Shown: piece by piece, positions 12,539-50,570 of the stretch | Position numbering within the stretch: position 1 is the stretch's first letter | Layout: each line of letters opens with the position of its first letter | Source: an uncultured Acholeplasmataceae bacterium | GTDB lineage: Bacteria > Bacillota_I > Bacilli_A > Acholeplasmatales > UBA5453 | DNA length: 64,000 nt | NCBI GenBank assembly: GCA_964649865.1 | Contig: CAZYSQ010000001.1 | Coordinates: 13,849 to 77,848 of the forward strand | Direction of reading: 5' to 3' | Position numbers and translations under genes: made by a program | Notes under the pieces: generated by a model | The model's database searches: none | What the model saw: only the letters and a program-made list of their open reading frames with translations | What the model was told of the DNA's origin: nothing

Positions 12539-12795
12539 GCGGCACCGCCCGTCCGGGTGATGTGCACCCAGTCCTCTGCGACCTCATCCGGGTTGATCAG
12601 CACCGGGACGGTCCGGCCCGCCTGCCGGTACATGGCGGCGACCAGATCACCGAGCCTGCATGCGGGGACCGTGACCTTCGTGCGGCGGCGGGTGCCCGCC
12701 TCCGTCGCCGTCAGGTCCACGCCGTTGCCGCCGGCGGAGGGGGCGGCGGTCAGGTAGTTACCGTCCCGGTCGGTGAACACGTACGGGGCGGTCAC
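12535..12795 (-). CDS. hypothetical protein
   Basis: ORF track, coupled. Confidence 0.5.
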   Translation of the reverse strand: MTAPYVFTDRDGNYLTAAPSAGGNGVDLTATEAGTRRRTKVTVPACRLGDLVAAMYRQAGRTVPVLINPDEVAEDWVHITRTGGAA

Positions 12796-16649: not shown

Positions 16650-17110
16650 CGCCGACCCTCCCAAGACTTCGCCGTGTTGCAGGAAAGGCACGCAGGACGA
16701 ATATTCGCTGGGAGGTTGAGCCCACCCTTTCCGATGGGCTTCACGTGATCGATCGTGTCGGCGTCGCCTCCGCATACCCAGCAATGACCGCCGAAGTAGG
16801 CGATCCGAGCCTCTAGCGCTTCGGCGGTTAGGACGCCCAGCACACCTAGCTGGTCAGCTCTCCGGTTGTGGAATGCAGCGATCCGGGCTAGGCGATTGCG
16901 CTGGTAGTAATCGCGAGCAATGACACGGAGACGCTCAGGGTCACGAGCCGCGTTGTTGGCCTTCAGCCTCTCTGGGTTGTTTCGATTCCACTCCCGTGTG
17001 GCCGCCTTAAGCCGTTCAGCATTGGCCCGGTAGTACGCCGCGTTGTAATGGCGGGAGCAAAGGCCCTTCGCTTTGACGGAGCGATCGCATTTGGAGCATG
17101 TGGGGGGCAT
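16646..17110 (-). CDS. HNH endonuclease (homing-type)
   Basis: CWVCGGDADTIDHVKPIGKGG...NIRPACLSCN. Visibly lower GC3 than its neighbours. Confidence 0.85.
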   Translation of the reverse strand: MPPTCSKCDRSVKAKGLCSRHYNAAYYRANAERLKAATREWNRNNPERLKANNAARDPERLRVIARDYYQRNRLARIAAFHNRRADQLGVLGVLTAEALEARIAYFGGHCWVCGGDADTIDHVKPIGKGGLNLPANIRPACLSCNTAKSWEGRR

Positions 17111-24331: not shown

Positions 24332-26146
24332 CCCGCCCGCGTCTTTACCGTCGTCCCGGCTGTTCGGCTGCCGCCACACGATCCGCACCGACTCCTCGAT
24401 CGTGAACCGTTTCTTGTCACGCAACGGCAGGATCTCCACCCGGTCCACCAGCGCCCGGATCACGGCCCGCCGCTGCGGCAACGACCGCGCCCCCCACGCT
24501 GCCCTGACATCGTTCACGTCCGGCAGCAGCAGCCCCTCCAACACCGGCCCCACCCGCACCTGGGCCAACCGTGCACGCGTCGCCTTGATCGCGGGTTCCA
24601 GAGTCGACTCCACCCGCAACAGTCCCTCCAACGACAGTCCTTTGCCTGTCGCATACGAGTCGCGAGCCTCGTCCAAGCGGGCCTGCATCCCGGCGATCTC
24701 CGCCGTCATCTCCGAAAGCTGCGACTCCACCCGCGCGTCCTCCGCTGTCAGCAGCTCCGCCAAGTCGGGCCGTGCCAGCCGCAGCCACACCGACCGTTCC
24801 ACATGGTCATCCACGTCTTTCATCGCGCGGGCCACGTGGTAGCTCTTCTCACGGTCGTCACCGGCTACGACAAGCTTCATCTCGCCGCGGCGGGCACGCT
24901 CGGCCTTCAGCCGCAGGCTCAGCGTGGACGGCCACAACCCCAGGCCCCGGGACACGCTGGCCTGAGTGACGCCGGTCTTCACCAGATCCAGGATCATCGC
25001 GGTCTGTTCTCCCACCGGTAGCCGGGCCAACACCGCGAGATCCTCTGCGTCCGCCTCCCTCGCTGCCCTGCGGGAACTACGCGCCACCAGAACCCTCGGC
25101 CGGCACGTGTACGCCAGACCGTTCCGGCGAGTGATCGGACGCACCACCGCACCGCACACCCCACACACGTACAGGCCCGACCCCAGATACTTGATGCTGG
25201 TGTCCTTCACCTTGCGCCGAGCCTGATCCGACAACCGCGCCACTAGGGCGTAATGGTCCGCCTTGCCCACCAGCGGCGGCCACGTCCCCTCCGCCACCAC
25301 CTCCCCGTAATACGACCGCATCCCCGCATACGTCGGGCTCATCGCAACCCGCCGCACCGCAGTCGGCGACCAGCCACGGTCACCGCCCGCAGGGGCAGGG
25401 ATACCGCGCCAATTCAGATCCGCGGCAACACTCCGTGACGCCTCTCCCCTCAACACGCGCCGTGCGATCTCCCGCACCACCCCAGCCCGCGTGTAGACAG
25501 ACACCTCGCCTGTGCGGGTCTTCGCCGACCGCGGCTCATCATCGGGTTCCTGGCTGACGATGTGCCGCTGCCCATGCCGGTCCACCTCGTATTCGCGGAC
25601 GTACCCGTATGGCACTGTCCCGTGAGGCTGACCCACCAACGCCATCGACTCAGTGTCCCGCTGGATCCGCTCAGAGGTCCGCTCCGCCTCGTCTGCGCTG
25701 TCCAGGCCCTCTTCGGCGAGAGTCTTGTAGTCGCGGCGGCGCCGCGGGTCGTAGGTGCGGCGGTGTGAGGTGATGTGGATCAGCACGCCGATCTTCCGGC
25801 ATGTGTGCAGGAATTCAAGCCAGCGCAGGTCGTCACGGTCACCGCGGGAAACCTCCCACACCACCACAACGTGGTACCGGCGAGCGGCCACGTCGGCGCG
25901 TAGCCGGTCCCAGTCAGGACGGGGTTTGGTCGCGAACCGTGACGCGGGCCGGTTGTTGTCGCAGTAGACGGCGTCCTCGGCGAGGACCCATGCTTCGGCC
26001 GCGCACACGGCACGGTTCCCGTCGTCCTGCTCTTTGACCGATCGGCGCCGCCCGGAGCGGTCCTTGCTGACCCGGTCGTAGATCGCGGCAAGCAGCGGGG
26101 TTCCCGCGTCGAGGGCTGCGTGGGCGAATCCGAGGGGGCGTGGCAT
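24314..26146 (-). CDS. int: large serine recombinase (phage integrase)
   Basis: Catalytic AAIYDRVSKD, VVVVWEVSRGDRD, and a long recombinase / zinc-ribbon / coiled-coil C-terminus. ATG 26146 is preferred over 26182 because the 36 nt between them are low GC. Confidence 0.9.
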   Translation of the reverse strand: MPRPLGFAHAALDAGTPLLAAIYDRVSKDRSGRRRSVKEQDDGNRAVCAAEAWVLAEDAVYCDNNRPASRFATKPRPDWDRLRADVAARRYHVVVVWEVSRGDRDDLRWLEFLHTCRKIGVLIHITSHRRTYDPRRRRDYKTLAEEGLDSADEAERTSERIQRDTESMALVGQPHGTVPYGYVREYEVDRHGQRHIVSQEPDDEPRSAKTRTGEVSVYTRAGVVREIARRVLRGEASRSVAADLNWRGIPAPAGGDRGWSPTAVRRVAMSPTYAGMRSYYGEVVAEGTWPPLVGKADHYALVARLSDQARRKVKDTSIKYLGSGLYVCGVCGAVVRPITRRNGLAYTCRPRVLVARSSRRAAREADAEDLAVLARLPVGEQTAMILDLVKTGVTQASVSRGLGLWPSTLSLRLKAERARRGEMKLVVAGDDREKSYHVARAMKDVDDHVERSVWLRLARPDLAELLTAEDARVESQLSEMTAEIAGMQARLDEARDSYATGKGLSLEGLLRVESTLEPAIKATRARLAQVRVGPVLEGLLLPDVNDVRAAWGARSLPQRRAVIRALVDRVEILPLRDKKRFTIEESVRIVWRQPNSRDDGKDAGGSAAPV

Positions 26147-26182
26147 GACGATACGATAGCTTGAAGTATTGACAACGCGCAT

Positions 26183-26979: not shown

Positions 26980-27242
26980 CCGCGCCGAGCGCTGAGGCGC
27001 GGGAGTTGGCGGCAGCGATCCGCGATGCGCTCCACGTGCCCAGCGCCGACACCAGCGCACCCGGCGCCGAGTACGCGGAGGACATGCTTCGGCTGAAGCG
27101 TGTCGGCTACGTGCGCGGCGTTCTGGGCGGTCTTGCCAACGGTACGTGCGGTGTGGTCGACACGGTGCACACGATCCGTGAGGCGACCGTCGAGTTCCCC
27201 GTCACGTATCCCGTCCGCCAGAAGGCCGGGGTGGCGTCGTGA
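26976..27242 (+). CDS. hypothetical protein
   Basis: GTG start coupled as GTGA. Confidence 0.5.
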   Translation: MTAPSAEARELAAAIRDALHVPSADTSAPGAEYAEDMLRLKRVGYVRGVLGGLANGTCGVVDTVHTIREATVEFPVTYPVRQKAGVAS

Positions 27243-27321
27243 GGGCGCGTGTTCAGGCCGTGGTTCTGGCTGCCGCCTGCTGGACGATCCTCATCCCACT
27301 TGCCGCCTACAGGGGGCTCCT

Positions 27322-27933
27322 GTGACTGAACCACTCGTCGCGATCATCGACGCGGAAACCACCGGCCTCGACCCGTCCGCCGGCCACGAAGCGTGGGAGT
27401 GGGGTCTGATCCTCCGTGACCCGGCCGCGCCGCCGCATGAGCGAGATGTGGAGTACCTGTGGCAGGTCCGTCCCGACTTGACCCGCGCGGACCCGTTGGC
27501 ACTGTCGAAGGGCGGCTACTACCGGCGTGCCCGGTTGAACGACCACGAGCCCGGTGCCGCTGAGCTGGTGGAGGGGCCGCCATCGGCGAAGGTCGGCAGC
27601 GCCCGCGCGTTGGCGTTCCTGCTCGCCCCGCTGCTGGACGGCGCGGTCGTGGTCGGCTGCAACCCGGCGTTCGACAGGGACTTCCTGCGCCCGTTCCTCC
27701 ACCGCCACGGGCAGGCGTACACGTGCCACTACCGGCCCCTGTGCGTCACCACCATGGGGGCCGGCTACCTGTACGGGCAGGGCTTCTCGCCTGGGGATCT
27801 GCCGTGGAGCAGCGACCGCGTCGCCGACCTGCTTGGTCTCGACGTCAGCGACTACGACCGACACACCGCCCTCCATGATTGCCGCTTCGCCCGAGACCAG
27901 TGGGACGCCATCACCGGAGGCGGCAATGGGTGA
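27322..27933 (+). CDS. DEDDh 3'-5' exonuclease (DnaQ-like)
   Basis: ExoI IIDAETTGL, ExoII GCNPAFDRDFL, ExoIII HTALHDC. GTG 27322 follows an AGGGGG SD. Confidence 0.85.
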   Translation: MTEPLVAIIDAETTGLDPSAGHEAWEWGLILRDPAAPPHERDVEYLWQVRPDLTRADPLALSKGGYYRRARLNDHEPGAAELVEGPPSAKVGSARALAFLLAPLLDGAVVVGCNPAFDRDFLRPFLHRHGQAYTCHYRPLCVTTMGAGYLYGQGFSPGDLPWSSDRVADLLGLDVSDYDRHTALHDCRFARDQWDAITGGGNG

Positions 27934-28839: not shown

Positions 28840-29085
28840 GTGGCGTCGCTGCTGATCATCCGCCGTGGCCGGGATGTCATCGGCCAGTGCGACGAGCTCT
28901 GCTACGACGCCAAACACCCCAAGTGCGTGTGCCGCGCCTGCGGCGGGACCAACCACGGCATCGGCTACCAGGCCGCGGTAGAGAACACGCGCCGGCTGGT
29001 AGCCGCCTGGGACGACCCCGGCGAGATAGAACTCGCCGACGACGTCCAGAACTTCACCCTCTTCCTCCTCCCGGAGACGAGATGA
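28840..29085 (+). CDS. Cys-rich small protein
   Basis: CDELCYDAKHPKCVCRACGG. Confidence 0.5.
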   Translation: MASLLIIRRGRDVIGQCDELCYDAKHPKCVCRACGGTNHGIGYQAAVENTRRLVAAWDDPGEIELADDVQNFTLFLLPETR

Positions 29086-32544: not shown

Positions 32545-32788
32545 CAAGTACGCGCCCAAGGCCACTCCGCCGACCGCGCAGGAACAGGCCGCTGAGATCC
32601 TCCAAGCCCGGCTGTCCTGGCGTGACGCTGAACGGTACGCCGTCGAACTCGACGAAGCGGGAGCGCTGGACTCTGGGGACGAGGTGGTGGGAGTCGCTGT
32701 GCTGACCGCGCACATGCCCCGCACCCGGGCCGAAGCGCTCATCAGGGACCTGCGCATGTACGGAGCGATGGAGAAGACCGATGGCTGA
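32537..32788 (+). CDS. hypothetical protein
   Basis: ATG 32537 follows an AAGGAG SD. Confidence 0.5.
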   Translation: MADKYAPKATPPTAQEQAAEILQARLSWRDAERYAVELDEAGALDSGDEVVGVAVLTAHMPRTRAEALIRDLRMYGAMEKTDG

Positions 32789-33032
32789 CAGGACGCTGAA
32801 GGCCGGCGCCCCGGTGGTCGTTGTCGAGCACGACGAGGCCACACGGATGCCGCTCGAAGGGGGCCGTCGGCTCCCCGGCCGCGTCGTCAAGACGGAAGGG
32901 ATCTACATCCAGGTCGACTACGACGACCGCGCCGTCAACGGTGGCCGCACCGACGTGTTCTACGCGGAGTCGTGGTGGAGGGCATGGGACGGCGCCATGC
33001 GCTGGCGACTGACCACCGAGGAGAAGCCGTGA
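32781..33032 (+). CDS. hypothetical protein
   Basis: ORF track. Confidence 0.5.
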   Translation: MADRTLKAGAPVVVVEHDEATRMPLEGGRRLPGRVVKTEGIYIQVDYDDRAVNGGRTDVFYAESWWRAWDGAMRWRLTTEEKP

Positions 33033-33569: not shown

Positions 33570-34037
33570 TCACGGACAGATCTTGTGATCCGGATCCCAC
33601 CAGATCACATAGAACACACGAGGAGACTCCTCCGACAGCACACCCCACAGCCGGCCCCTGTTCACGAGTCGGAACCGGAACAGCTCCTCGAACTCGTCCA
33701 ACTGCAGCTCAGCGAGCCGGTCCTGCGCCGTCTTCACCAGGCTCGACACCGGGATGAACTTGTGCTTCTGGCTGTCCCGCCGCTTGGAGTGTGCCCGCTG
33801 GTCCCAGATCTCCCGCCAGGTCAACCGCTCCATCTCGCAGAGGAACCGGACCAGCATCGTGCTCGTGGCCTGGTCGATCCGCCAATGCCACTCGCCGTCG
33901 TACTCGGCGTCCAGCAGCGACAGCCGCCATAAGGGGTGATGGTCGCCCTCGCCGTCATGCGCGACGCCAGCAAGGCACCGCGGCAGCGGCTTACGAACTA
34001 CGGTCGGCGAGGGCGCCCGCTTAGCCTTCTTCGCCAT
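33570..34037 (-). CDS. unknown protein downstream of the Panacea antitoxin (candidate toxin)
   Basis: Overlaps the 3' end of 34021..34488 by 17 nt. C-terminal motif FRFRLVNRGRLWGVL...VFYVIWWDPDHKICP. No family assigned. Confidence 0.6.
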   Translation of the reverse strand: MAKKAKRAPSPTVVRKPLPRCLAGVAHDGEGDHHPLWRLSLLDAEYDGEWHWRIDQATSTMLVRFLCEMERLTWREIWDQRAHSKRRDSQKHKFIPVSSLVKTAQDRLAELQLDEFEELFRFRLVNRGRLWGVLSEESPRVFYVIWWDPDHKICP

Positions 34038-34488
34038 TGGCGTCTGCGGCGGTCAGCGCATCGAAGAACTCGGCGATCTCCTCATCAGTGAGTTCTTCCT
34101 TGCTGCGCTCCATCGGGCCCACGCGGGCACGGTTGCGGGCGCTGACCCACGGGCCATCGCGGTGCGTCATCTGCGACAGCTCATGCGCCGAGTACGTCCC
34201 GAGCCCTTCGAGGACCAGGTCGACCGATTCGCGTTCCCCGCTGTCCAGCGCGGCCGGGTTGCCGGGGATGTCGCCGGCGTCGAGCTGGAACTTGCCGCGG
34301 TGCCACCGGTACAGGGCGGGGGCGACGGGCCCGTTGGCCCATGCCTCGAACCGCTCGGAGAACAGGGGGCGTTCCTCCCACGCCAGGTGGTAGCCGTAGG
34401 CGTAGAAGCACAGCTTCTGCAGCTTCATCGCCGACATCGGTCCGCGGTGTTCCAGGATGTACGCCGCTACGTCGGTGACGGTTGCCAT
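34021..34488 (-). CDS. Panacea-domain (DUF4065, SocA/GepA-like) protein, putative PanA antitoxin
   Basis: MATVTDVAAYILEHRGPMSAMKLQKLCFYAYGYHLAWEERPLFSERFEAWANGPV matches the DUF4065 core. ATG 34488 follows a GGAAGGAGG SD. Confidence 0.75.
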   Translation of the reverse strand: MATVTDVAAYILEHRGPMSAMKLQKLCFYAYGYHLAWEERPLFSERFEAWANGPVAPALYRWHRGKFQLDAGDIPGNPAALDSGERESVDLVLEGLGTYSAHELSQMTHRDGPWVSARNRARVGPMERSKEELTDEEIAEFFDALTAADANGEEG

Positions 34489-34684
34489 GTGTGTCGCCCC
34501 TCCTTCCCTCTCTGTTATTCGTACCCGTTTGCGGGAACGGATCGGCATGTCGGGTCCTTACTGGTTCGTAACGTTTTTCCGTACGGACGGCAACCCAAGG
34601 TCTACTGTTCGTTACTACACGGGTGCTGACCGTGGACACGGACGGTTAGCCAAACGAGACCAACACTTCACCCCCACCCCAGCA

Positions 34685-35234: not shown

Positions 35235-35426
35235 ATGGACCCTGAGCTAGTAGCCGGCGCCATCCACGAAGTCGAACGCCTCGCCTACCTCGCCGGCGCC
35301 GGCCCCCACACCAGCCCAGACCCCAACATCCCACCGGCCATCTACGCGCAACTCGCGCACACATGGGCCATAGTCGCCCTCGCCCGCGCCATCGTCATCC
35401 ACGCCGACCGGTACCCGCCCACCTGA
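35235..35426 (+). CDS. hypothetical small protein
   Basis: ORF track. Confidence 0.4.
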   Translation: MDPELVAGAIHEVERLAYLAGAGPHTSPDPNIPPAIYAQLAHTWAIVALARAIVIHADRYPPT

Positions 35427-35471: not shown

Positions 35472-35678
35472 ATGGCAGGCAGCGGCCCCCGGCACTACCA
35501 AGACGCCGAAGACCTCCTCCGGAAAGCCCAGTACACCAACAACGAGACCGAACGCGCCCGCTACCTCCAAGAGGCCCAGGTGCATGCGACACTCGCGCTC
35601 GTCGCCGCCACCGTCCAAGGTGGGCAGATCGGCGACAGAGAACTCCGCGACTGGCAAACGTTCGGGCTCAAGGTCTAG
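35472..35678 (+). CDS. hypothetical small helical protein
   Basis: ORF track. Confidence 0.45.
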   Translation: MAGSGPRHYQDAEDLLRKAQYTNNETERARYLQEAQVHATLALVAATVQGGQIGDRELRDWQTFGLKV

Positions 35679-36337
35679 CCGCGGGACACGGCCGGCGCCA
35701 GCAGATCAACCCGGCCGTGCTTGACCAGATACTCCACCAGCCTGAGCGGAGCCTCGGGATGCTCGTTGTGCCGGCTGTTGAACAGCGGTGAGAGCGTCCT
35801 GATTCGCTCTTCTTCCTCGGCCTCGGCCGCCTCGCGTGTCGGGAACCGCTCAACCGTCGACCGGACCGCGAAGTCCATCCATGACGAGCGCTTCACATGG
35901 GCGTACGTCCGCTCGTGCAGATTGTCGGTGATCCCGACGTACAGCAGCACGTCATCAGCGTCGTAGTAGCTGTAGAGCGCCGTGCGCGTCACAGGCGCTG
36001 CGTCGTCCCGGCCCCGCTCTCCTAGTCCCTCAGAGAGCCACTCACCCAAGGACCGGACGTCAGACTCGCGTGTGCGGTAGGCCGTCGCGCGCTCGATCCC
36101 CAGCCGCGCGGCTGCCTCAACCCGATCACAGTCCCAGAGCGCCATGCCGATGCGGATGGTCATGCGGATGTAGTCGTCGGGTTCGTCGAGGAGGATCGTC
36201 TCGATAGCGGCGAGTGTATGGCTGGCCTGATCAGCTTCGGTCTGTGGCGCCATTGGGATCGGGTCGAGCATGAGGGCCTCTTCGGGGGTCATGCGGCCTC
36301 GCCGCGCATCCTCGATCACCTGACGGATAGTCGTCAT
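35675..36337 (-). CDS. HTH + GIY-YIG nuclease domain protein
   Basis: ALYSYYDADDVLLYVGITDNLHERTYAHVK ... REAAEAEEEERIRTLSPLFN (GIY..YIG, R, E, N). Has an HTH-like segment AAARLGIERATAYR. Starts 4 nt after the HD gene stop. Confidence 0.75.
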   Translation of the reverse strand: MTTIRQVIEDARRGRMTPEEALMLDPIPMAPQTEADQASHTLAAIETILLDEPDDYIRMTIRIGMALWDCDRVEAAARLGIERATAYRTRESDVRSLGEWLSEGLGERGRDDAAPVTRTALYSYYDADDVLLYVGITDNLHERTYAHVKRSSWMDFAVRSTVERFPTREAAEAEEEERIRTLSPLFNSRHNEHPEAPLRLVEYLVKHGRVDLLAPAVSRG

Positions 36338-36341
36338 GGTC

Positions 36342-36923
36342 TTAGCGCCGGCCGTAGTTGGAGACGATGTCGTACCACCAGGCGTTCGGGGTCACCTCAA
36401 GCGCGGCGTTGGCGAGTGCCTTCCCTGAGGGTGTCTTCACAGCGTCGACCATCGTGTCGATCCACGGCTGCGCATCTTGGTATCCCTGGGTCAGGTACTC
36501 GCGGGCTTGGAGGAGGCACTCCAACTTGTCGGCGTCTTTCGCGCACCGCGCCTCGGGGGTCGACCGGTCCTCGAACTCTTCGATGAGGGATTGGATCCGC
36601 TCGGCCAAGGCGGCCGGGAGCTGTGCCGTCTGATCACGGATGACGTCGGTGTCGGACGCCATTGAGACGTAGCGTTTCCCGGTTGAGGGGATGTCTCCCT
36701 GGCGGGTCTCTGGTAGGTCGTGAAACAGGCAGAGCGTTGCCGTCCGCTCAGCATCGGCTCCTTCCATCATGGCGATCACGTAGCCCACGATCGCGGTGCG
36801 GAAGCTGTGCTCGGCGACCGACTCAGGATTCTGCACGCCTGCGATCCACCAGCCCTGCCGGGCTGACCGCTTCAGGTGGCCTGCCTCATGCAGGAACGGG
36901 ACTATCTCGCGGGCGTCAGACAT
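36342..36923 (-). CDS. HD-domain phosphohydrolase, YfbR-like 5'-deoxynucleotidase
   Basis: ESVAEHSFRTA, LFHDLPETRQGDIPS and AKDADKLECLLQAREY align motif-for-motif with E. coli YfbR as I remember it. Overlaps the upstream gene by 8 nt. Confidence 0.82.
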   Translation of the reverse strand: MSDAREIVPFLHEAGHLKRSARQGWWIAGVQNPESVAEHSFRTAIVGYVIAMMEGADAERTATLCLFHDLPETRQGDIPSTGKRYVSMASDTDVIRDQTAQLPAALAERIQSLIEEFEDRSTPEARCAKDADKLECLLQAREYLTQGYQDAQPWIDTMVDAVKTPSGKALANAALEVTPNAWWYDIVSNYGRR

Positions 36924-37959
36924 CGGTTCTCCTTGAGGGGTTCGCGGCCATACGTGCCGCGTAGTTGATGTTCTCCAGTTCGCGTCTGCTCTGCGCCGGC
37001 ACATCAATGCCGTCGTCCAGCAGCTCTGCGGACTGGGTTCGGATTCGGTCCGCGAGGTCAGGGTCCTGCATCAGAAGCGCGGGTCGGCGCTGAATGAGCG
37101 CGGACACCGCGTGCGCAGACAGGCTCATGTACGGAACCCTCGATGCGAGCCCGTCAGCAAGATGCCTCAGCAACACCGCGCCACGCCAAGGCCCGAGGTC
37201 GCTGGCCATGAACGTGTCGTTGGTCGCCGCCCCGTTCGTCTCCTCCACCCAGTACGACCAGTAGTTCAGGTTCGCCGCCTCGCACAGGTCGTCAGTGAGG
37301 TGATCCCGGATGAAGTCATTCAGCAAAGTCGGGTCGCCCTGGCAGGCACGTGCAACGGCAGTGGACCTCAAGAGCGACCAGCCCGGAGTCCACGCATCGT
37401 GGCGGCGAGCACGTCCGACCTCCGCCTTCTCCATGGCGGCGAGCCAGTTGCGGCCGTCGCGGGATGGATCCCAGGCGGTCATGTAGTACACCTGCCGGCG
37501 CAGGAGCATCGCCCGAGGGTCATCCGCTCGGGCTTGCTCGGCTGCAGCGCGGAGCACACGAAAGAACTCCAGCCGGGCCGCCATGGGCAGCGGCGACCGC
37601 GGCACCTGGGCCAGGCTCGCGCTGAGCACTAGCGGCGGTTTGTCAGCGAGAACCCACGCGAGCAGGTCGCTCCACGTGCGGGTTGCGACCCACTCTCCCA
37701 GCGGAGACGCGTCGCCGTCATCGAGAACCTGGGCAATGAACAGGTCCGCGTCCATCGCGGTGTTGAGGTGCTCGACCAGGGCGGGCGATGCGCCGAGCCC
37801 TAGGAGCCGGTGCCTCATGATGCGGAGGTTCCTGGCTGAGGTGTTGAGGAGTGGGCGACGTCCCGTCTCCCAGCCTTTAAGAGTGTTCGGGTCCACGGTG
37901 AGGAGCTCGGCGAGCTGCTCCTGGGTGAACCCGACCGATTCCCGGATCGTCCGCAGCAT
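36916..37959 (-). CDS. XRE-family HTH protein with a ~280-aa uncharacterised helical C-terminal domain
   Basis: MLRTIRESVGFTQEQLAELLTVDPNTLKGWETG. ATG 37959 is preferred over 38031 because the first 24 codons of the long ORF have low GC3. Confidence 0.7.
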   Translation of the reverse strand: MLRTIRESVGFTQEQLAELLTVDPNTLKGWETGRRPLLNTSARNLRIMRHRLLGLGASPALVEHLNTAMDADLFIAQVLDDGDASPLGEWVATRTWSDLLAWVLADKPPLVLSASLAQVPRSPLPMAARLEFFRVLRAAAEQARADDPRAMLLRRQVYYMTAWDPSRDGRNWLAAMEKAEVGRARRHDAWTPGWSLLRSTAVARACQGDPTLLNDFIRDHLTDDLCEAANLNYWSYWVEETNGAATNDTFMASDLGPWRGAVLLRHLADGLASRVPYMSLSAHAVSALIQRRPALLMQDPDLADRIRTQSAELLDDGIDVPAQSRRELENINYAARMAANPSRRTDV

Positions 37960-38144
37960 GATGCCGGCGACGATGCCGCCGGATGGCCGGGGTGTACTCC
38001 CGGTACCTGTGCGTCCTGCAGGTCTGCTCATCGCTGGGACCTGAGCCTCCCGAACGTGTACTGCCAGTGTCTCTAGATGCGCTGTGCGTCTAGCTAGCGT
38101 GTGTGCAATGAGTCCAGGTGAGCGCAGTCAGATGATCCAGGAGA

Positions 38145-38543
38145 TCAGCGGTCTCTCTGATCGGCTTGATCGACTGACGGCGCAGCTTGCGGAGCTGAGA
38201 GCTCTCGCCGCAGCGCGTCGAGCTGCATCTCAAAATCATCCATCCGCTGACGCAACTCCTCTAGAAGCTTCGCCTGATCATGAATGTCCGGAAGCGGCTC
38301 CCGCTTCGCTGGCTTCATAAGGACGAAGGTTCCCCGAGTTGAGCGGGTCTCCAGTACCCCCTTCGACTTCAACTCGTCCAGCGCCTTCTTGAGGGTCTCA
38401 GGCGCGACGCCATAGTCCGCTGCCATCTGCTTTCGCGCTGGCAGTTGCTCTCCGGGCTCATACCGACCCTGCTCGATCTGCTCCCACAGGTCATCGGCGA
38501 TCTGCAGGTAGACGGGGTGCGGGCTACTGAAATCAATGGGCAC
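38145..38543 (-). CDS. GntR-family repressor with a short C-terminal coiled coil (KorSA-like)
   Basis: PVYLQIADDLWEQIEQGRYEPGEQLPARKQMAADYGVAPETLKKALDELKSKGVLETRSTRGTFV. Confidence 0.8.
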   Translation of the reverse strand: MPIDFSSPHPVYLQIADDLWEQIEQGRYEPGEQLPARKQMAADYGVAPETLKKALDELKSKGVLETRSTRGTFVLMKPAKREPLPDIHDQAKLLEELRQRMDDFEMQLDALRRELSAPQAAPSVDQADQRDR

Positions 38544-38608: not shown

Positions 38609-38653
38609 TTCAACGTGTACAGCTATGGTGAAGAGGTCGAAGGAGGAACAGCC

Positions 38654-38932
38654 TTGAGCGAGCAGATCAGTCCCGCGAGCGGGACGCAGACGGCGGATCC
38701 CCGCCTCCTGCTGCCCGTGTCGGAGGTGGCCGCCCTGCTCGGGCTGTCCACGATGACCGTCTACCGCCGCATCCGGTCCGGGCAGTGGCCCAGCGGCAGG
38801 AGCGGACGCAAGCACCTCATCCCCCGCAACTTCGTCGAGGGCCTCCTCAGCGAGATGCGGACGGGTGAGCAGGTCAACATCGAGGCGTACGGCGCTGCCG
38901 CATGGCCGGCGAAGGCTGAGGAGCTCGCGTGA
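38654..38932 (+). CDS. excisionase-family (MerR-like) HTH DNA-binding protein
   Basis: LLLPVSEVAALLGLSTMTVYRRIRSGQWP. TTG 38654 lies 7 nt after a GAAGGAGG SD. Confidence 0.7.
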   Translation: MSEQISPASGTQTADPRLLLPVSEVAALLGLSTMTVYRRIRSGQWPSGRSGRKHLIPRNFVEGLLSEMRTGEQVNIEAYGAAAWPAKAEELA

Positions 38933-40468: not shown

Positions 40469-40795
40469 ATGCCCGCGCTCCACCGCCGCAGCCTCCACAT
40501 CCAGCTGCCCTGGGACGACCCCGTCCCGCCCGGCCTGGCCCTGGAGATCCCCGCCTGGACCGAAAAAGCACGGTGCACCGAGGTCGGCGGCGACGAATTC
40601 TACCCCGAGAAGGGCCAGTCCAGCGTCCCCGCCAAGCAGGTGTGCATGGGCTGCGAGGTCCGCATGCAGTGCCTGGAGTGGGCGCTCGACAACGGTGAGC
40701 GCTTCGGCGTGTGGGGTGGGAAGTCCGAGCGGGAGCGCCGCAAGATCGCCCGCGACCGCCGCACCGCCGCAACCGTCACGGAGGTGTCGGCATGA
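40469..40795 (+). CDS. WhiB-family transcription factor (second copy in the window)
   Basis: CTEVGGDEFYPE...CMGCEVRMQCLEWAL...GVWGG. Confidence 0.85.
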   Translation: MPALHRRSLHIQLPWDDPVPPGLALEIPAWTEKARCTEVGGDEFYPEKGQSSVPAKQVCMGCEVRMQCLEWALDNGERFGVWGGKSERERRKIARDRRTAATVTEVSA

Positions 40796-42051
40796 AGCTC
40801 ATCTGGAAGCACACCCGGCCGCCGGTGGTCGAGTCCGTTCAGGACCAGACCGCCCAGGCCGCGGACCTTGCCCGGATCCCCGGGCAGGACATGCTCACCG
40901 ACCCGCGCACCAACCCTGCGGTCCGGGCCCTGCTCGACCACCTCCGTAACGAGCAGCACCGCATGCAGCTCGAAGCCGAACACGGGAGGGCCAAGCGCCG
41001 GCACCGTGTCGACGACCGTCACCGTGCCGAGGCCGAGCTGACCCTGCACGCCATCCTGCAAGCGAAGCAGGCGTCCTCTCCGGCCCGCTCTGTCCTCGCC
41101 CTGCACCGCGGACGCACCTGGTTCATGGGTGCTTCTCTGGCCGCGTCGGTGTCCCTGTCCGTCGGGTCCGCGTTCGGTGTGGGGCATCTCGCCGACGAGC
41201 TCGGCGCCCCCAAGGTCACCGGGTGGGTGGCTGAGGTCGGCATGGTCGGCCTGTCCACCATCACGATCCTCTACCTGGCACACCTGTTCCGCCACGGATG
41301 GGTGCCTTCCGTCCTGCACCGGCTGCTGCTGGGGTTCCTGGCGATCGGGCCGCTGCTCGGTTCGGTGGTCGCGAACTCGTTCGGTGCCGGCCCTGTCGGT
41401 GTCGCCTGCTCGGTGGGCGCAGCGTTGTTCGGGGTGTTCAGCCACCTCGTGAGTGACAACTCGGCTGGTGCGCTGCGGAAGAAGGCGGACGAGGTCGGGA
41501 TGGAGGACGCGCAGGCGCTCCGCGCCACGGCGCTGGGCGACGACCTGTTCGCTCTGCCTGCCGAACCGCGAACCACTGAAGAGGTTCCAGAACCGGAGTT
41601 CGCGAACCAGCAGGTTCAGGTTCACGCGGAGGTTCAGGAACCACCCGCTGTGGAGGTTCACGAACCGGCCGTCTCCGAGGTTCGCGAACCGCAGCAGGTT
41701 CCGAACCACGCTCCCGAACCCGCGAACCCCGAACCGGGCGAGAACCGCGAACCGGTGAACCCCGAACCGCAGGTTCACGAACCCGCCCCGGCCGAACCCG
41801 CGAACTCCGAGGTTCCAAACCACGAGCCCACCACGCAGCACAAGTCCCGCACCAAGCCGGCCACGAGCCTCAACGACCGCGCCCAGCGGAAGGCCGCCGA
41901 GGTTCAGCAAGTCGTGGACCTGATCCGTGAGCGGGGCGAGGACGCCGTGACGCTGAACGTGGTTCGCGAGGAACTCGAGTTCGCGAAGACGACCGCGTAT
42001 CACCGCCTTGTCGCTGCCCGCGAACTCGTGAACCAGGCGGTGGCGTCGTGA
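40792..42051 (+). CDS. polytopic membrane protein (DUF2637-like) with a repeat-encoded Pro/Glu linker and C-terminal HTH-like domain
   Basis: ATG 40792 forms ATGA. Four hydrophobic segments. Linker EVPEPEFANQQVQVHAEVQEPPAVEVHEP... is encoded by the GAACC repeat field. Confidence 0.6.
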   Translation: MKLIWKHTRPPVVESVQDQTAQAADLARIPGQDMLTDPRTNPAVRALLDHLRNEQHRMQLEAEHGRAKRRHRVDDRHRAEAELTLHAILQAKQASSPARSVLALHRGRTWFMGASLAASVSLSVGSAFGVGHLADELGAPKVTGWVAEVGMVGLSTITILYLAHLFRHGWVPSVLHRLLLGFLAIGPLLGSVVANSFGAGPVGVACSVGAALFGVFSHLVSDNSAGALRKKADEVGMEDAQALRATALGDDLFALPAEPRTTEEVPEPEFANQQVQVHAEVQEPPAVEVHEPAVSEVREPQQVPNHAPEPANPEPGENREPVNPEPQVHEPAPAEPANSEVPNHEPTTQHKSRTKPATSLNDRAQRKAAEVQQVVDLIRERGEDAVTLNVVREELEFAKTTAYHRLVAARELVNQAVAS

Positions 42052-42250
42052 ACCTGAAGCACGCGAACCCCGAACCGCGAACCTCTGAGTCTGGAACCTG
42101 CGCTGCCGCGAACCTCGGCCAGCAGTGCCCCGAGCCGGCCACGCTTCTTGAACCTGTCGCGCTCTGCGACGAGCACAAGGTTCAGGTTGCCCTACTGGTT
42201 GCGCCCGAGGTGCTGTCTGCTGTCCTTGCTGAGGTTCGCGTGAACCAGCA
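41563..42250. repeat. dense GAACC/GGTTC repeat field (candidate clt / TraB recognition array)
   Basis: About 37 GAACC or GGTTC pentamers by manual count in ~690 bp. Eight exact CGCGAACC octamers. Palindromes GGTTCGCGAACC and GGTTCACGAACC. Spans the junction of two genes. Confidence 0.8.
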
Positions 42251-42818
42251 TGGCCCCGGCCATCCCTCCCCCTCCGTCGAAGTCCAGTTGATCAACGCCG
42301 CACAGGCGGTCAAGACACCGGCCGATGAGCGGCATGAGCCGCTCGTGTACTTCATGGCCAACGGCGGCCGGGTGAAGATCGGCCACACGAAGAGCCTGGC
42401 CGCGCGCCTGCGGGCGCTCTCTCTTCCTGGCGATGCGGTCCTCCTGCTTCTGCAGGGCGGGCTCCCCCTCGAACGCGCTTTGCACCTGAAGTTCCGCTCT
42501 TTCCGGATCGGCAAGAGCGAGTGGTTCGAGCTCGCGCCCGAGATTGTGCACTTCATCGCAAGCAAGAGCACCACACTGAACCGCCCTCTGACCAGCACGA
42601 ACAGGCTCGGCGGCCGGTTCGGTGTGGCGCGGAGGCCGCGCCGCACACGCGATCAGATCCGGGTCCAGCTCGAGGCGGCGCTTCGGGACCGTGCCCCTGG
42701 GACGACTCTGCGCGTGAAGCCGCTGGCGGAGCAGATCGGAGTGAATCGGCGCATCGTTCGCGAGCTTCTCGACGAGATGGGCGTTCGCCCAGCTGAGGGG
42801 CGCAGCGATGGCAGGTAA
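42048..42818 (+). CDS. T5orf172 (MUG113, GIY-YIG-superfamily) domain protein with C-terminal HTH
   Basis: LVYFMANGGRVKIGHTKSLAARLRAL ... ERALHLKFRSFRIGKSEWFEL. C-terminal AEQIGVNRRIVRELL. Confidence 0.68.
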   Translation: MNLKHANPEPRTSESGTCAAANLGQQCPEPATLLEPVALCDEHKVQVALLVAPEVLSAVLAEVRVNQHGPGHPSPSVEVQLINAAQAVKTPADERHEPLVYFMANGGRVKIGHTKSLAARLRALSLPGDAVLLLLQGGLPLERALHLKFRSFRIGKSEWFELAPEIVHFIASKSTTLNRPLTSTNRLGGRFGVARRPRRTRDQIRVQLEAALRDRAPGTTLRVKPLAEQIGVNRRIVRELLDEMGVRPAEGRSDGR

Positions 42819-45336: not shown

Positions 45337-47388
45337 ATGGACACCACCACGATGGAGCCGCCCGCCACGGTCGGCGCACCCGAGCCCGACCGGTTCACTG
45401 CCGTCCCGGCGCAGCCCGATGCGTCTGCGTCGTCCGGGCGGTGGAACGCGGAGGGCATGGTCGGCCGGGCCCGCACCGACGCCTACGACACTGCGGTGCG
45501 GCTCCGTGCGCAGATCGCGCCGCACGCCGCCGCAGGGGCTGTCTTGGCGGTCGGGTTGGGGATGGACTCTGTCGTCGCCGCAGGTGGCATGTCCGCGCCC
45601 GCTATGGCGTTGACGGCTGCGGCGGTGTCCGCTCCGACCGTCACGGGGCTGGTGTTGCGTGCCCGCGCCCGCGGCTCGGAATGGGTCCGCCGTCTCCTGA
45701 TCGGTGGCGTCGCCGCAGCGGGCTGGCTCGTGGCCGCACCGTTCGGTGTTGAGCCGGTCAGTGTCGCCGCACTCGTCGCTGCCGAGTACGCGGTTGCCGC
45801 GCGGTGGTGGCAGACCCACCGGCCCGGCTACCCCGGCGACGATGTGCCCGAACTGGCCACCGAGGACGCGCTCCCGGAGGAGGAGCCCGTCCCCGAGCCC
45901 CTCACACCGGTCGAGCAGATCGTCGCGGACTGGGACGAGTACATCGCCTGTTCCGGCGGCCCGCTGCAGAACTCCCGGCTGATCGCCCCTCAGCAGCACA
46001 AGCACGGGTTCGCGTTCACGCTGCAGCTGTGGCGGGGCCGGCACACCCTCACCAGTGCGATCGCCGCGCTCGACAAGCTCGCGTCCGGGTTGGACTGCGG
46101 CGTTGATCAGATCATCGTGGAGTCTCACCCGCTGCTGAAGGGGGAGGCGAACTGCCGGTTCCAGCTCATCACCAACTCCCCGATCGCCGGGGACGTGGTG
46201 TTCGATGGGCCCCGCCGCCGCGGCGGACTACTGGAGCTCGGTCCGTATGCGGACGGGTCCGGCGAGGCGCCGTACCGGTTGTACACGCCCGGGTCGATGT
46301 GGTCCGGCGTCATCATCGGCGGCACCGGCATCGGCAAGTCCCGCGTCGTGGAGAACATCATCATCTCCGCGCTGTCCGGCGGCGACACCGAGTTCTGGTA
46401 CCTCGACCCGGCCCGCGGCGGGTCCAGTCCCGCCCTCGCCGAGGCCGCGGACTGGTTCGTCACGATGGACCAAGTCGACGTGTTCCTCGACACGGTCATC
46501 GCGGTCCTGGAGGCCCGCACCGATGAGAACGCCGTCGAGGGGTGGACGGGGTTCACCCCATCGCCCGAGCGGCCGGGACTGCTGATCGGGGTGGAGGAGT
46601 GCCACAACCCGTTCCAGGGGGCTGAACGCGCCGAGAAGTGGGCGAAGATCGCCCGCGAGGGACGCAAGGTCGGGATCTCCCTGCTGTGTGTCTCCCAGTA
46701 CCCCGGTCTGATCACCTTCGGCGGGAACGAGGCGCTGCGGTCCAGCGTGATGGAGGGCAACGCGCTGGTCCTCCGCTCCACCAGCAACCAGACCGGTGGG
46801 CTGATGGCCGGGTTGACTGTCGACCCCAAGAGCCTCCCGAAGATCCCCGGCTACGCCTACGTGCAGGGGTCGGAGGAGACCGGGACGCGCACGGCCCCGT
46901 TCAGGAACCGCAACACCGCGCCCCCGAACGGTCCAGGCGCCGGCCGATGGCTCGCGTCCCAGCCCCGTCCCGGACTCGACGTGCTCGCCGTGACCGCGAC
47001 TCTCGCCGCCGGCCCCGCCTACCAGGACCGGCGCACCTCAACCGACACCGGCCGTGCCGGTTCCCGCGCACGCGTCGAGTCGCTCCGCAATGGGCACCTG
47101 CCCGCCGACATGCTCAAGGGCCGGAAGAACACCGCCGAGGTCCCCACCATCGCCCAGGTGATCGAGTTCCCCCAGTTCCGCCTCATCGAGACAACCACGC
47201 CCGCGTCTGGCCTCAGCGCCTCGCACCAGGCCGTGCTCGACGCGGTCGCCGCCGGCGTCACCCGCCCCGCCGACATCGAGACGGCGGTCGGGTTGAAGCA
47301 CCGCCGTGTCGCCGCGATCCTCGCCGACCTTGTCACCTCCGGGCACCTCACCAAGACCGGCCACGGCCGCTACCAGACCGCGGCCTAA
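45337..47388 (+). CDS. traB: FtsK/SpoIIIE-family DNA translocase, Streptomyces TraB/TraSA-like
   Basis: N-terminal TM region, Walker A GGTGIGKS, Walker B LLIGVEE, and a C-terminal wHTH (VTRPADIETAVGLKHRRVAAILADLVTSGHLTK). Confidence 0.85.
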   Translation: MDTTTMEPPATVGAPEPDRFTAVPAQPDASASSGRWNAEGMVGRARTDAYDTAVRLRAQIAPHAAAGAVLAVGLGMDSVVAAGGMSAPAMALTAAAVSAPTVTGLVLRARARGSEWVRRLLIGGVAAAGWLVAAPFGVEPVSVAALVAAEYAVAARWWQTHRPGYPGDDVPELATEDALPEEEPVPEPLTPVEQIVADWDEYIACSGGPLQNSRLIAPQQHKHGFAFTLQLWRGRHTLTSAIAALDKLASGLDCGVDQIIVESHPLLKGEANCRFQLITNSPIAGDVVFDGPRRRGGLLELGPYADGSGEAPYRLYTPGSMWSGVIIGGTGIGKSRVVENIIISALSGGDTEFWYLDPARGGSSPALAEAADWFVTMDQVDVFLDTVIAVLEARTDENAVEGWTGFTPSPERPGLLIGVEECHNPFQGAERAEKWAKIAREGRKVGISLLCVSQYPGLITFGGNEALRSSVMEGNALVLRSTSNQTGGLMAGLTVDPKSLPKIPGYAYVQGSEETGTRTAPFRNRNTAPPNGPGAGRWLASQPRPGLDVLAVTATLAAGPAYQDRRTSTDTGRAGSRARVESLRNGHLPADMLKGRKNTAEVPTIAQVIEFPQFRLIETTTPASGLSASHQAVLDAVAAGVTRPADIETAVGLKHRRVAAILADLVTSGHLTKTGHGRYQTAA

Positions 47389-48092: not shown

Positions 48093-48274
48093 GCCACGTC
48101 AACTTTGACGTAGACGGAAACGGACGCTCAGCGCTCATCACCATCACCGCCTCAGAACGCGGGCAGACCGTCCGGATCCACGCACGCATGGACCAGGACT
48201 CCCTTCGCCGCCTCATCCGGAAGCTGTGCGACCGGGCCGGGCTGCCTGAACCGTGGAAGGAGGAGACACGATGA
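48089..48274 (+). CDS. hypothetical small protein
   Basis: GTG 48089 forms GTGA. Confidence 0.45.
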   Translation: MSHVNFDVDGNGRSALITITASERGQTVRIHARMDQDSLRRLIRKLCDRAGLPEPWKEETR

Positions 48275-48711
48275 GTCTCGCAACGATGGGTGGCGTGTAC
48301 GCCGCTCTCCACGCCGGCCACACCGTGGGCGACTACTGGGGTCAGAGCGACTACCAGGCGCAGGTGAAGGGGAAGCCCGGCACCGACGGGCAGGCCGCGT
48401 GCGCGCGGCACGTCGCGGTCCTCACAGCCACACAGGCAGCGTTCCTCGGTCTCGCCTGCCTCGCCACAGGGGAACGACTCAACGCCCGCCGTGTCGCCGC
48501 TGGGCTGGCCGTGAACGCTCTCTCCCACTACGCCATCGACCGCCGCGACCACGGCGTCATGCCCGTGTTGTGCCGAGCCCTGTGCCGCTACGGCAAGGAA
48601 GACTTCGCCGCGGCTGGCGACGGTCTCGCGACCGGGGCCGCGCTACTCGACCAGGCGTGGCACATCGGATGGTGCGCCATCACCGCAGCCGTCATCGCTG
48701 GAAAGGACTAG
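48271..48711 (+). CDS. membrane protein, DUF3307-like
   Basis: HAGHTVGDYWGQSDYQA resembles the HxxGD(F/Y)xxQ signature of DUF3307. ATGA coupling. Confidence 0.45.
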   Translation: MSLATMGGVYAALHAGHTVGDYWGQSDYQAQVKGKPGTDGQAACARHVAVLTATQAAFLGLACLATGERLNARRVAAGLAVNALSHYAIDRRDHGVMPVLCRALCRYGKEDFAAAGDGLATGAALLDQAWHIGWCAITAAVIAGKD

Positions 48712-49550: not shown

Positions 49551-50570
49551 GTGACCGAACTCGTCCCCCACAGTGCCGCGCCCGCCGGCGGCCCGCTGCT
49601 CGCGCTCACATCTCCTCCACACGGTGCCGCTGACCCGTACCTGGTGTACCGGAACTCCCTCGACAGCGCCGAGTCCAAGACGACCATGACCGCATGCCTC
49701 GACCGCATCGCCCGCATGATCCTCGAAGAGGAGATCGGCGAACCACTCCCCCGTGACCAGACGGTCACCGGCGCAGGCCGGTCCTGGTGGCTCCTCAGAT
49801 ATGAGCACACCTCACGTATCCGCGACCTCCTACTGCAGACAGGCTGGTCCCCCAGCCACGTCAACAAGCACCTGTCCGCGCTCCGACGCGTACTCAAGGA
49901 ATGCCAGTACCTCGGCCTGATGAGCGCCGACCAGTACGAATCCGCCGCACGGATCAAGAACGTGAACGCCAAACGAGAGAAGGCCGGCCGGAACCTCAAC
50001 GCGGACGAGCTCGCGTCGATGCTGCGCGTCTGCGAGAACGTCGAAGGGCCCGCTGGCGTGCGGGATGCCGCACTGATCGGTGTGCTGTGGTGCACGGGCG
50101 CGCGACGGGAAGAGGTCGCGAACATCGTCCTGGAGCGCTACGACGCTGGCACCCGCGCTCTGAAGCTCACTGGCAAGGGCAACAAAGAACGCGCGGTCTA
50201 CATCCACCCGCGGGTACTCCCCCACCTGGAAGCCTGGCTGTCCTTGCTCGGCACCCGTCGGGGGCCGATGTTCCAGCCGGTCGACCGGTGGGGGCATGTG
50301 CGGACGGGAGGGATGTCCAAGCGTGCGGTCGGGATGGTCGTTGCGCGGGTCCGTGCCCGCGCCGGCCTCCCGCCCCTGTCCACGCACGACTTTCGACACA
50401 CCTTCATCGGTGACCTCCTCGACAAGGGCGTCGACCTAGCCACGGTGCAGGCCCTCGTGGGGCACGCGTCCCCCGTCACCACTGCGGCGTACGACCGGCG
50501 TCCTGAGCGCGTCAAGCAGGACGCCGTGGACAGCCTCGACTACCCCGGCAACGACAGGAGTGAGACATGA
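49551..50570 (+). CDS. int: tyrosine recombinase / integrase
   Basis: GARREEV (Arg I), HDFRHTF (HxxR), GHASPVTTAAYDRR (catalytic Tyr), and an N-terminal SAM-like domain. Confidence 0.88.
   Translation: MTELVPHSAAPAGGPLLALTSPPHGAADPYLVYRNSLDSAESKTTMTACLDRIARMILEEEIGEPLPRDQTVTGAGRSWWLLRYEHTSRIRDLLLQTGWSPSHVNKHLSALRRVLKECQYLGLMSADQYESAARIKNVNAKREKAGRNLNADELASMLRVCENVEGPAGVRDAALIGVLWCTGARREEVANIVLERYDAGTRALKLTGKGNKERAVYIHPRVLPHLEAWLSLLGTRRGPMFQPVDRWGHVRTGGMSKRAVGMVVARVRARAGLPPLSTHDFRHTFIGDLLDKGVDLATVQALVGHASPVTTAAYDRRPERVKQDAVDSLDYPGNDRSET

Follow-up and report, generated by a model that had tools for sequence, protein, structure and literature searches.

Does a run of three closely spaced genes on contig CAZYSQ010000001.1 (assembly GCA_964649865.1) form a single functional system and, if not, which of the genes belong together and what might they do? 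The genes are located in a stretch of 64,000 nucleotides (nt), contig positions 13,849 to 77,848, that was analyzed as a whole and is denoted here the window. They are three minus-strand open reading frames (ORFs), all co-oriented, that span positions 35675-38031 of the window and encode a regulator of the XRE family with a helix-turn-helix (HTH) domain, an HD phosphohydrolase and a GIY-YIG nuclease. An earlier note on this DNA, made from the sequence alone, had recognized these domains, which are supported by Pfam and Foldseek, and interpreted the trio as an undescribed defence or addiction module of a prophage. The comparative analysis partitions the locus differently. The conserved unit is a two-gene operon that consists of the XRE and HD genes, always adjacent and co-oriented and usually translationally coupled; the GIY-YIG gene is not part of it; and the element that hosts the genes has the appearance of an actinomycete integrative and conjugative element (AICE) or a conjugative-plasmid-like element, not a prophage. 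The XRE–HD pair is widespread and was probably noticed before on AICEs.

The partition is most apparent from the neighborhoods of XRE genes in other genomes. The genome scan included one genome per GTDB species and yielded 396 genomes with an XRE relative; 80 loci were examined. In all 80, a gene of the HD family is located immediately 3' of the XRE gene, on the same strand (tblastn). Another 37 matches to the XRE protein come from plasmid records, and both genes are present in each of the five that were inspected (from Streptomyces, S. rimosus, Nocardia, Pseudonocardia and Saccharothrix); all inspected metagenomic loci likewise contain an HD_3 gene immediately downstream of XRE. In the reciprocal test, homologues of the HD protein with 58-60% identity are preceded by an ORF of 352-364 residues which overlaps the HD gene by 4 nt. 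At the loci with called genes, the two genes overlap or are separated by 4-13 nt. In the window, the HD start codon and the XRE stop codon overlap by exactly 8 nt (ATGTCTGA), as originally reported, and an AAGGAG motif is found 6 nt upstream of the HD start. The identities of the XRE and HD proteins to the query proteins co-vary across 84 loci, with a Pearson r of 0.93; the Spearman coefficient is only 0.28 because most of the loci bunch near 40%/50% identity. Furthermore, the two proteins are fused, cleanly and in frame, in one cluster of proteins (P0415, at 50% identity) with three members of 603-606 residues; these come from NCBI and two IMG data sets and are three independent sequences. 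A second candidate fusion, P0053, was discarded given that its sequence is visibly frameshifted. A row of XRE, HD and Nudix genes is found only at two Kitasatospora loci (L032 and L051). Altogether, the XRE–HD pair co-diverges and moves as a unit between chromosomes, plasmids and AICEs.

The first gene of the pair (36916..38031, minus strand) encodes a protein of 371 residues that combines an HTH domain with a large helical domain. The HTH, at approximately residues 25-80, is recognized by Pfam HTH_31 (E=3e-7, 31 bits, with a gathering score of 27) and HTH_3 (E=5e-7, 30.2 bits, with a gathering score of 23), and Foldseek matches over this part only, to ClgR and C.AhdI, reach a probability of 1.0. 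The remaining approximately 290 residues comprise an all-alpha C-terminal domain that is modelled confidently by AlphaFold2 (AF2; predicted local distance difference test score, pLDDT, of 90, predicted template modelling score of 0.87, 21 helices). This domain belongs to no family in Pfam, NCBIfam or PADLOC, and Foldseek searches of PDB and BFVD gave no significant match to it, with full-length template modelling (TM) scores of no more than 0.30. Weak matches to ARM repeats, importin, 14-3-3 proteins, PrgX and Stl (TM scores up to 0.35) were rejected as generic helical-repeat noise. The domain nevertheless contains many invariant tryptophans, arginines, tyrosines and asparagines, for example in the motifs EAANLNYWxYW and LLRRQ. 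Thus, the HTH and the unassigned helical domain described in the earlier note stand, whereas the start at 37959, for a protein of 347 residues, does not appear to be the right one. The start is most likely at 38031 because the homologues are approximately 370 residues long and have a conserved N-terminus, and the ATG at 38031, together with a GGGAGG Shine-Dalgarno sequence, is kept in three diverged loci whose XRE proteins are 59-78% identical. The family is well populated, with 237 clusters (50% identity) at E<=1e-30 and protein search matches in Streptomyces, Kitasatospora, Nonomuraea and other genera. The GC content at third codon positions of the XRE, HD and GIY-YIG genes is 0.805-0.81, slightly under that of many neighbours.

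In its general layout, an N-terminal XRE-type HTH followed by an all-alpha domain of approximately 290 residues, the regulator resembles the RNPP proteins (PlcR/PrgX/Rgg), AimR and the Stl repressor of SaPI, and its placement is typical of a switch regulator of a mobile element. The resemblance does not extend to the fold or the genomic partner: the match to PrgX has E=0.34 and a TM score of 0.20, that to Stl has a TM score of approximately 0.35 and covers the N-terminal part only, and, instead of an adjacent peptide gene, the regulator in the window is accompanied by an enzyme.

The second gene (36342..36923, minus strand) encodes this enzyme, a metal-dependent phosphohydrolase of 193 residues that belongs to the HD_3 family together with YfbR, HDDC2 and AF1432. 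The assignment to the HD phosphohydrolases with a YfbR-like set of motifs, made in the earlier note, is upheld by strong matches to Pfam HD_3 (PF13023; E=6e-34, 117.7 bits against a cut-off of 22.5), YfbR-like (E=1e-13, 51.7 bits against 25.9) and HD (PF01966; 46.7 bits against 22). All the motifs are intact, with RQGWW at residue 22, AEHS at 37, FHDLPE at 67 and DADKLE at 130. The enzyme is probably active, judging from sequence, because R-x-G-W and HD..E are conserved in all 84 loci, and D-x-D-[KR] in 82 of the 84. Among proteins of solved structure, small nucleotide phosphohydrolases are the closest to it, with PDB matches to AF1432 (3e-22), HDDC2 (1e-19), an OxsA-like protein (3e-18), YfbR (3e-7) and DatZ (5e-3); the best match among the PHROGs is family 7076, 'dATP triphosphohydrolase' (4e-11). 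The window protein shares with the characterized members of the family (the E. coli 5'-deoxynucleotidase YfbR, human HDDC2, AF1432 of A. fulgidus, OxsA, the phage dATPase DatZ, and PenF) the size of approximately 190 residues, the R-x-G-W motif that contacts the nucleotide and the H/HD/D metal ligands. It differs from them in that it is no YfbR equivalog and is only distantly related to DatZ, and in that, unlike the characterized members, it is paired with an XRE protein.

Membership in the HD_3/YfbR-like family, along with the names '5'-deoxynucleotidase' or 'HD family hydrolase' that NCBI gives to the relatives, could mean that the enzyme is a plain housekeeping 5'-(deoxy)nucleotidase which happens to be encoded beside an ordinary regulator, with no special system involved. 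This explanation seems very improbable. The protein scores 40 bits against the YfbR equivalog model (NCBIfam NF003009), far under the cut-off of 122 bits, and its flanking genes are variable. The distribution of the gene is patchy and mobile, over plasmids and AICEs, and the HD gene is obligately coupled to one XRE family, to the point of fusion in one lineage, and it is mainly for these reasons that a housekeeping role is unlikely.

The third gene (35675..36337, minus strand, with alternative starts at 36292 and 36271) presents a different picture. The protein consists of an HTH-like N-terminal part and a C-terminal GIY-YIG nuclease domain. The score against Pfam PF01541, 20.5 bits, is below the gathering score of 22.6; the fold is, however, clearly identifiable from its structure. 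The AF2 model, with a pLDDT of 77 overall and above 90 over the domain, superposes on the N-terminal GIY-YIG domain of UvrC (Foldseek probability 1.0, TM scores of 0.67-0.70, root mean square deviation of 1.8-2.0 Å). The residues Y122, Y133, G135, R143, E175 and N187, which correspond to the catalytic tyrosine, the Tyr-x-Gly motif and the catalytic arginine, glutamate and asparagine, are invariant in 24 homologues. The best of the matches to PHROG endonuclease families is at 6.5e-14. The N-terminal half is helical and contains a classic-looking HTH, 'AARLGIERATAYR', for which the structural comparison gives sigma-4 and KorA matches with a Foldseek probability of only about 0.5, so that, of the HTH–GIY-YIG combination described in the earlier note, the GIY-YIG fold is well supported and the HTH part is weakly supported. 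In its fold, catalytic residues and PHROG matches the protein resembles the GIY-YIG, T5orf172 and MUG113 proteins of phages and mobile elements, from which it differs by an extra invariant C-terminal tail and by the sub-threshold Pfam score; compared to classical homing endonucleases, the domain order is reversed, with the GIY-YIG domain at the C-terminus and the HTH-like part at the N-terminus. The tail, encoded at 35675-35740, consists of approximately 30 residues (PEAxRRLVEYLVKHGRxDLLAPAVSRG) that are invariant or nearly so and is kept even in homologues with unrelated N-terminal halves, including fusions with DnaB-N. Such conservation across unrelated N-termini suggests a conserved interaction or DNA-binding tail.

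Could all three genes nevertheless constitute one anti-phage or addiction system, in which a sensor of the XRE family, a nucleotidase and a nuclease would combine nucleotide depletion with a nuclease effector, as proposed in the earlier note? The genes are co-oriented and close, a scan for promoters and terminators at 35.0-38.8 kb found none and, in particular, no terminator-like site between the three genes, and near-identical metagenomic copies of the element retain XRE, HD and GIY-YIG together; in addition, a toxin–antitoxin (TA) pair of the Panacea type is located nearby. Genes of the GIY-YIG superfamily (MUG113/T5orf172) are also found next to or near HD at four other mobile-element loci, on the same strand in L005, on the opposite strand in L002, two genes down in L100, and in L016. 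Yet this association is loose at most. Genes of this superfamily are common in these elements, and the MUG113 genes of the other loci are not orthologous to the one in the window (no tblastn match at 1e-5). Across the genome loci, no GIY-YIG or MUG113 gene is found among 61 downstream neighbours of HD, the gene 3' of HD is in either orientation at random (+ at 37 loci and − at 35), and no Pfam family recurs at this position, with at most 2 of the 61 loci sharing one. The 4-nt gap between HD and GIY-YIG, in which the earlier note saw tight coupling, holds only with the ATG at 36337. The gap may instead be 49-70 nt because the orthologues begin at the equivalent of M23, that is, the ATG at 36271 (70-nt gap), and gene callers placed the start in identical contigs at the ATG at 36292 (49-nt gap).

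Orthologues of the window's GIY-YIG gene with 70-75% identity are found in sister elements that lack XRE–HD. These sister elements share with the window a backbone of small genes (35472-35678, 35235-35426, 32781-33032 and 28840-29085) plus the Xis-like and WhiB genes, beside which the GIY-YIG orthologues are encoded, whereas at the place where XRE–HD would be, they carry DUF6879/DUF397/XRE-DUF5753 genes, a gene for an HTH_36 protein, or nothing. The GIY-YIG gene is therefore a backbone gene of the element, outside of the XRE–HD module. The defence screen suggested in the earlier note also came out empty: none of the three proteins has a system-specific match in PADLOC-DB 2.0, in which, for six local proteins searched, HD and GIY-YIG had no match and XRE had only a generic HTH match (E=1.4e-3). 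The trio claim fails on the point that the earlier note itself had named as refuting it, since the three genes are not co-conserved: neighborhood conservation is strict for XRE–HD and does not extend to GIY-YIG. A single three-gene system is accordingly a most improbable explanation of the locus.

What kind of element, then, carries the XRE–HD pair? It spans approximately 26.5-50.8 kb of the window. Directly upstream of XRE and co-oriented with it is a gene for a GntR-family regulator of 132 residues (38145..38543, minus strand; Pfam GntR, E=8e-18) that consists of a winged HTH only and occupies the position of the KorSA-type repressor of AICEs; synteny of GntR, XRE and HD is also found in L001/L014, L005/L006 and L096/L098 (tblastn). 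Divergent from these genes is a rightward operon, all on the plus strand, that opens with a Xis-like HTH_17 gene (38615..38932; Pfam E=2e-7; 82% identical in L005/L006) and continues with genes for WhiB (40469-40795), a 446-residue protein with no family assigned (40711-42051), a fusion of a MUG113 domain with a winged HTH, a 407-residue protein, a candidate conjugative DNA translocase of 683 residues that is TraB-like (FtsK/HerA-type; 45337..47388) and, at the end, a tyrosine recombinase, the integrase (49551..50570; Pfam Phage_integrase, E=2e-22; Xer-like in NCBIfam). The translocase matches the NCBIfam plasmid_TraB model with E=3.7e-15 across 454 residues, under the family cut-off; its homologues were found in 103 actinomycete plasmids and in none of 50,697 phage records (tblastn), and in Pseudonocardia and Saccharothrix plasmids, the TraB-like translocase and backbone occur together with XRE–HD. 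The element also encodes a DnaQ-like exonuclease (27100-27933), a DUF3307 membrane protein (48253-48711) and many small ORFs. It is this architecture of TraB-like translocase, integrase, Xis-like protein, WhiB and Kor-like GntR regulator that makes the element look like one of the AICE type.

The prophage setting between integrase and lysis genes that the earlier note had assumed does not hold. The XRE protein has no match in the same set of phage records (tblastn), blastn of the region against phages found nothing beyond fragments of 40-150 nt, and the backbone proteins of the element include no virion PHROGs; together with the TraB-like protein, the missing phage matches and virion families speak against prophage cargo (a moron). 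No convincing direct repeats of att type and no tRNA that would mark the ends of the element were found. Near-identical copies of the element are present in soil metagenome assemblies (ERZ27276804, ERR5004569 and ERR5005182). The 446-residue protein of the rightward operon contains a repetitive, proline- and glutamate-rich stretch (…EPANPEPGENREPVNPEPQVHEP…), for which imperfect 32-nt direct repeats with the core GAACCCCGAACC, at 41706-42078, are the coding sequence. The MUG113 fusion (42048-42818, plus strand, 256 residues), a second member of the GIY-YIG superfamily in the element, combines its T5orf172/MUG113 domain with a GntR-like winged helix.

The AICE setting links the pair to a gene cluster that has been described previously. 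A conserved AICE cluster consisting of mdp (metal-dependent HD phosphohydrolase), nud (Nudix) and xre was reported in two studies (te Poele et al. 2008, PMC2440964; Ghinet et al. 2011, PMC3218068) as common to pMEA100, pSE211, AICESco5349 and AICEs of Frankia and Mycobacterium, with uncharacterized function. The XRE–HD pair is probably the same 'xre–mdp(–nud)' cluster, to which it can be likened by description and gene content: the XRE gene adjoins the HD gene, and the element in the window encodes a GntR/Kor-type regulator, Xis, Int and a Tra translocase. The two differ in extent inasmuch as the XRE–HD family, found in the genomes of 396 species, on 37 plasmid records and at numerous chromosomal sites, is much wider than AICEs. 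The intuition of the earlier note, mobile accessory or regulatory cargo that belongs to no named system, is fair, although an xre–mdp–nud cluster was already in the literature.

A second parallel is the immunity operon of pSAM2, in which Pif, a Nudix protein that is co-expressed with the GntR repressor KorSA, confers conjugal immunity (Possoz et al. 2003, in PMC2440964) by a mechanism reported as unexplained (PMC2440964, PMC3218068). Common to both are a small GntR regulator and a hydrolase of nucleotide phosphates that are transcribed together, within an AICE control region and divergently from replication and transfer functions. The hydrolases themselves are distinct, HD_3 in the window and Nudix in Pif, and the one in the window has an obligate partner, the XRE protein of 371 residues.

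By analogy with these systems, the XRE–HD operon can be tentatively regarded as part of the AICE control region, with a regulator and a nucleotide hydrolase that would set the state of the element or its immunity, a reading we consider plausible although short of probable. Under this scheme, the XRE protein would bind the conserved region 5' of its own gene or the divergent promoter, and its novel helical domain would sense a small molecule of the nucleotide type or, alternatively, HD. The latter enzyme would hydrolyse a (deoxy)nucleoside phosphate that is this signal, its precursor or its controller. Together with the Kor-like GntR regulator, the pair would then set the expression of the element, that is, excision, replication or transfer, or else immunity to redundant transfer, in a manner analogous to the KorSA–Pif operon.

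The candidate promoter and operator, or leader, is the 113-nt intergenic region 5' of XRE (38032..38144, minus strand). Aligned with the corresponding regions of L005 (931-1046) and L001 (approximately 5820-5931), this non-coding region shows roughly the same degree of conservation as the coding sequence, even though the XRE proteins are only 59-78% identical. The conserved blocks are GGACTCAT, ACGCTAG and GGAGACAC..GCAGTACACGTT, and the region also contains the short CTAG-rich palindromes GCTAGC and TCTAGA; no match to the sigma-70 consensus was detected in it. Upstream of 84 XRE genes, the palindromes AGCCT-N7-AGGCT and GTGGTT-N7-AACCAC are found at 9 and 6 loci, respectively, and both exceed the expectation from shuffled sequences.

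Several observations weigh against a role of the pair in the control of AICEs. No operator palindrome is family-wide over the 84 loci, and the best motifs may reflect shared ancestry. No Nudix box was found in any frame of the 64-kb window, unlike in the published cluster. Of the 80 genome loci, some two thirds are chromosomal sites of Streptomyces and Kitasatospora at which no element genes are obvious up to 6 kb on either side, and these chromosomal pairs are often divergent from genes for HATPase_c_2 proteins, DUF6415 proteins or maturases for ribosomally synthesized, post-translationally modified peptides (RiPPs). Finally, tight coupling of an HTH protein with an enzyme on mobile DNA would equally be expected of a TA or abortive-infection module. 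The chromosomal majority, in particular, implies that XRE–HD cannot be solely a regulator of AICE transfer. Two further explanations of the pair are to be considered.

The first of these is that the XRE protein regulates divergent neighbours locally and the HD protein is an accessory enzyme of their pathways, so that the pair would be a portable regulatory cassette not specific to mobile elements. The gene upstream of XRE is divergent at 70 of 77 loci, which is the pattern of a local transcription factor, and the median spacing is 281 nt. Several upstream families recur, namely HATPase_c_2 (10 of 74 loci), DUF6415 (5 of 74), PCMT (4) and radical S-adenosylmethionine (rSAM) proteins (3), and a graspetide maturase (TIGR04187) and methyltransferase (TIGR04188) score above the cut-off. 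Moreover, HTH_31 and HATPase_c_2 are listed among the graspetide-associated genes (PMC8939145), and nucleotidases of the HD_3 type, such as PenF, are encoded in Streptomyces natural-product clusters (PMC11592144). The upstream partner, however, varies widely, such that no family exceeds approximately 25% of the loci; the operon opposite the pair, both in the window and on plasmids, consists of xis, whiB, tra and int rather than a biosynthetic cluster; and the obligate coupling, and even fusion, of the regulator with an HD nucleotidase is left unexplained. A purely local regulatory role is, on balance, unlikely.

As for the chromosomal neighborhoods themselves, in Streptomyces the pair often diverges from small clusters of RiPP-like type, and in most cases an HATPase_c_2 (anti-sigma-like) and/or a DUF6415 gene is located in between. 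Loci of the graspetide type (L028-L030, L041, L043, L044, L069 and L079) encode an ATP-grasp maturase and a PIMT-type methyltransferase, whereas loci with an rSAM/SPASM protein and a GNAT protein include L034, L060, L080, L082 and L087. The literature search found no graspetide-linked HD gene.

According to the second explanation, the two genes form a TA or abortive-infection (defence) module, in which HD would deplete or cleanse (deoxy)nucleotides, such as deoxynucleoside mono- or triphosphates (dNMP/dNTP) or modified phage nucleotides, and XRE would control HD and, through its helical domain, sense the infection. Among the features of type II TA modules, the strict coupling and the order of the genes, in which the one for the HTH protein precedes the one for the enzyme, fit the pair; HD_3, however, is no recognized toxin family, and an 'antitoxin' of 371 residues would be unusually large. 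The patchy distribution over plasmids, AICEs and variable chromosomal sites, the location in a cargo slot that holds other modules in sister elements, and the dNTP and dNMP hydrolases DatZ and YfbR in the HD family are also compatible with such a role. Fused sensor–effector proteins, such as CapRel, are known in defence. On the other side, no PADLOC model matches the pair, and the literature search retrieved no defence system that combines HD/YfbR with XRE. Among 135 immediate neighbours, the PADLOC matches were limited to the domain level (mad2 to HATPase-like proteins and pVip to rSAM proteins) and to sporadic reverse transcriptase, TIR and TnpB genes. In addition, many chromosomal copies diverge from regulatory or RiPP genes, as would a transcription factor that acts locally. 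A defence or addiction function of the XRE–HD pair, for which nothing that was found speaks specifically, hence appears doubtful.

The same cargo stretch does contain a probable TA module of the PanA/PanT type, separate from XRE–HD, and its proximity is one more point that can be cited for a defence role. It consists of a Panacea (SocA-like) antitoxin of 175 residues (34021-34548, minus strand), for which the identification in the earlier note is confirmed by Pfam SocA_Panacea (E=9e-16) and NCBIfam SocA_antitoxin (1e-14), and a putative toxin of 155 residues (33570-34037, minus strand) that overlaps it and matches PHROG 8366 and, weakly, MAG6450_fam (2e-5). At one other locus, L099, a Panacea gene directly follows HD.

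On both sides of the element, the window contains genes of other kinds. Positions 1-26.2 kb hold a distinct group of phage-like genes, possibly a second integrated element next to the AICE. It includes genes for a C5 DNA methylase (2289-3851), a DnaB helicase (6356-7720), a polynucleotide kinase (10357-11265; PHROG 505, 7e-90) that adjoins a T4-type RNA ligase (11262-12587) to form an RNA-repair pair, a PHROG 16191 protein (15603-16784) and a large serine recombinase (24314-26182), all on the minus strand. Just past the integrase, on the plus strand, there is a gene for a TROVE (Ro60-like) domain protein (51391-53016), followed further on by a WhiJ-type XRE-DUF5753 regulator (54120-55031, minus strand). 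No Rfam match, and hence no Y-RNA to accompany the TROVE gene, was found in the whole window.

For annotation, these observations imply that it would be wrong to assign the GIY-YIG gene to XRE–HD or to label the element a prophage. For the biology of the pair, control of AICE transfer or immunity by the XRE and HD proteins would help to explain how AICEs sense a neighbour that already carries the element, a question that has stood since the description of Pif in 2003. Somewhat more speculatively, and with rather low confidence, the pair could be an undescribed, self-contained sensor–enzyme module of actinomycete mobile DNA, with a new helical sensor fold, that degrades a nucleotide-derived signal or the (deoxy)nucleotide pool and thereby serves conjugal immunity and exclusion or defence against phages and plasmids; if so, it would be an HD-based counterpart of the long-unexplained Nudix immunity of pSAM2. 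Control of transfer or immunity would also assign a role to a gene pair of approximately 400 actinomycete species and many Streptomyces plasmids. The XRE–HD pair is a clean target for experiment because it offers only two genes, a natural fusion, an assayable enzyme chemistry and a confidently modelled regulator domain for which no structural relative was detected in PDB or BFVD.

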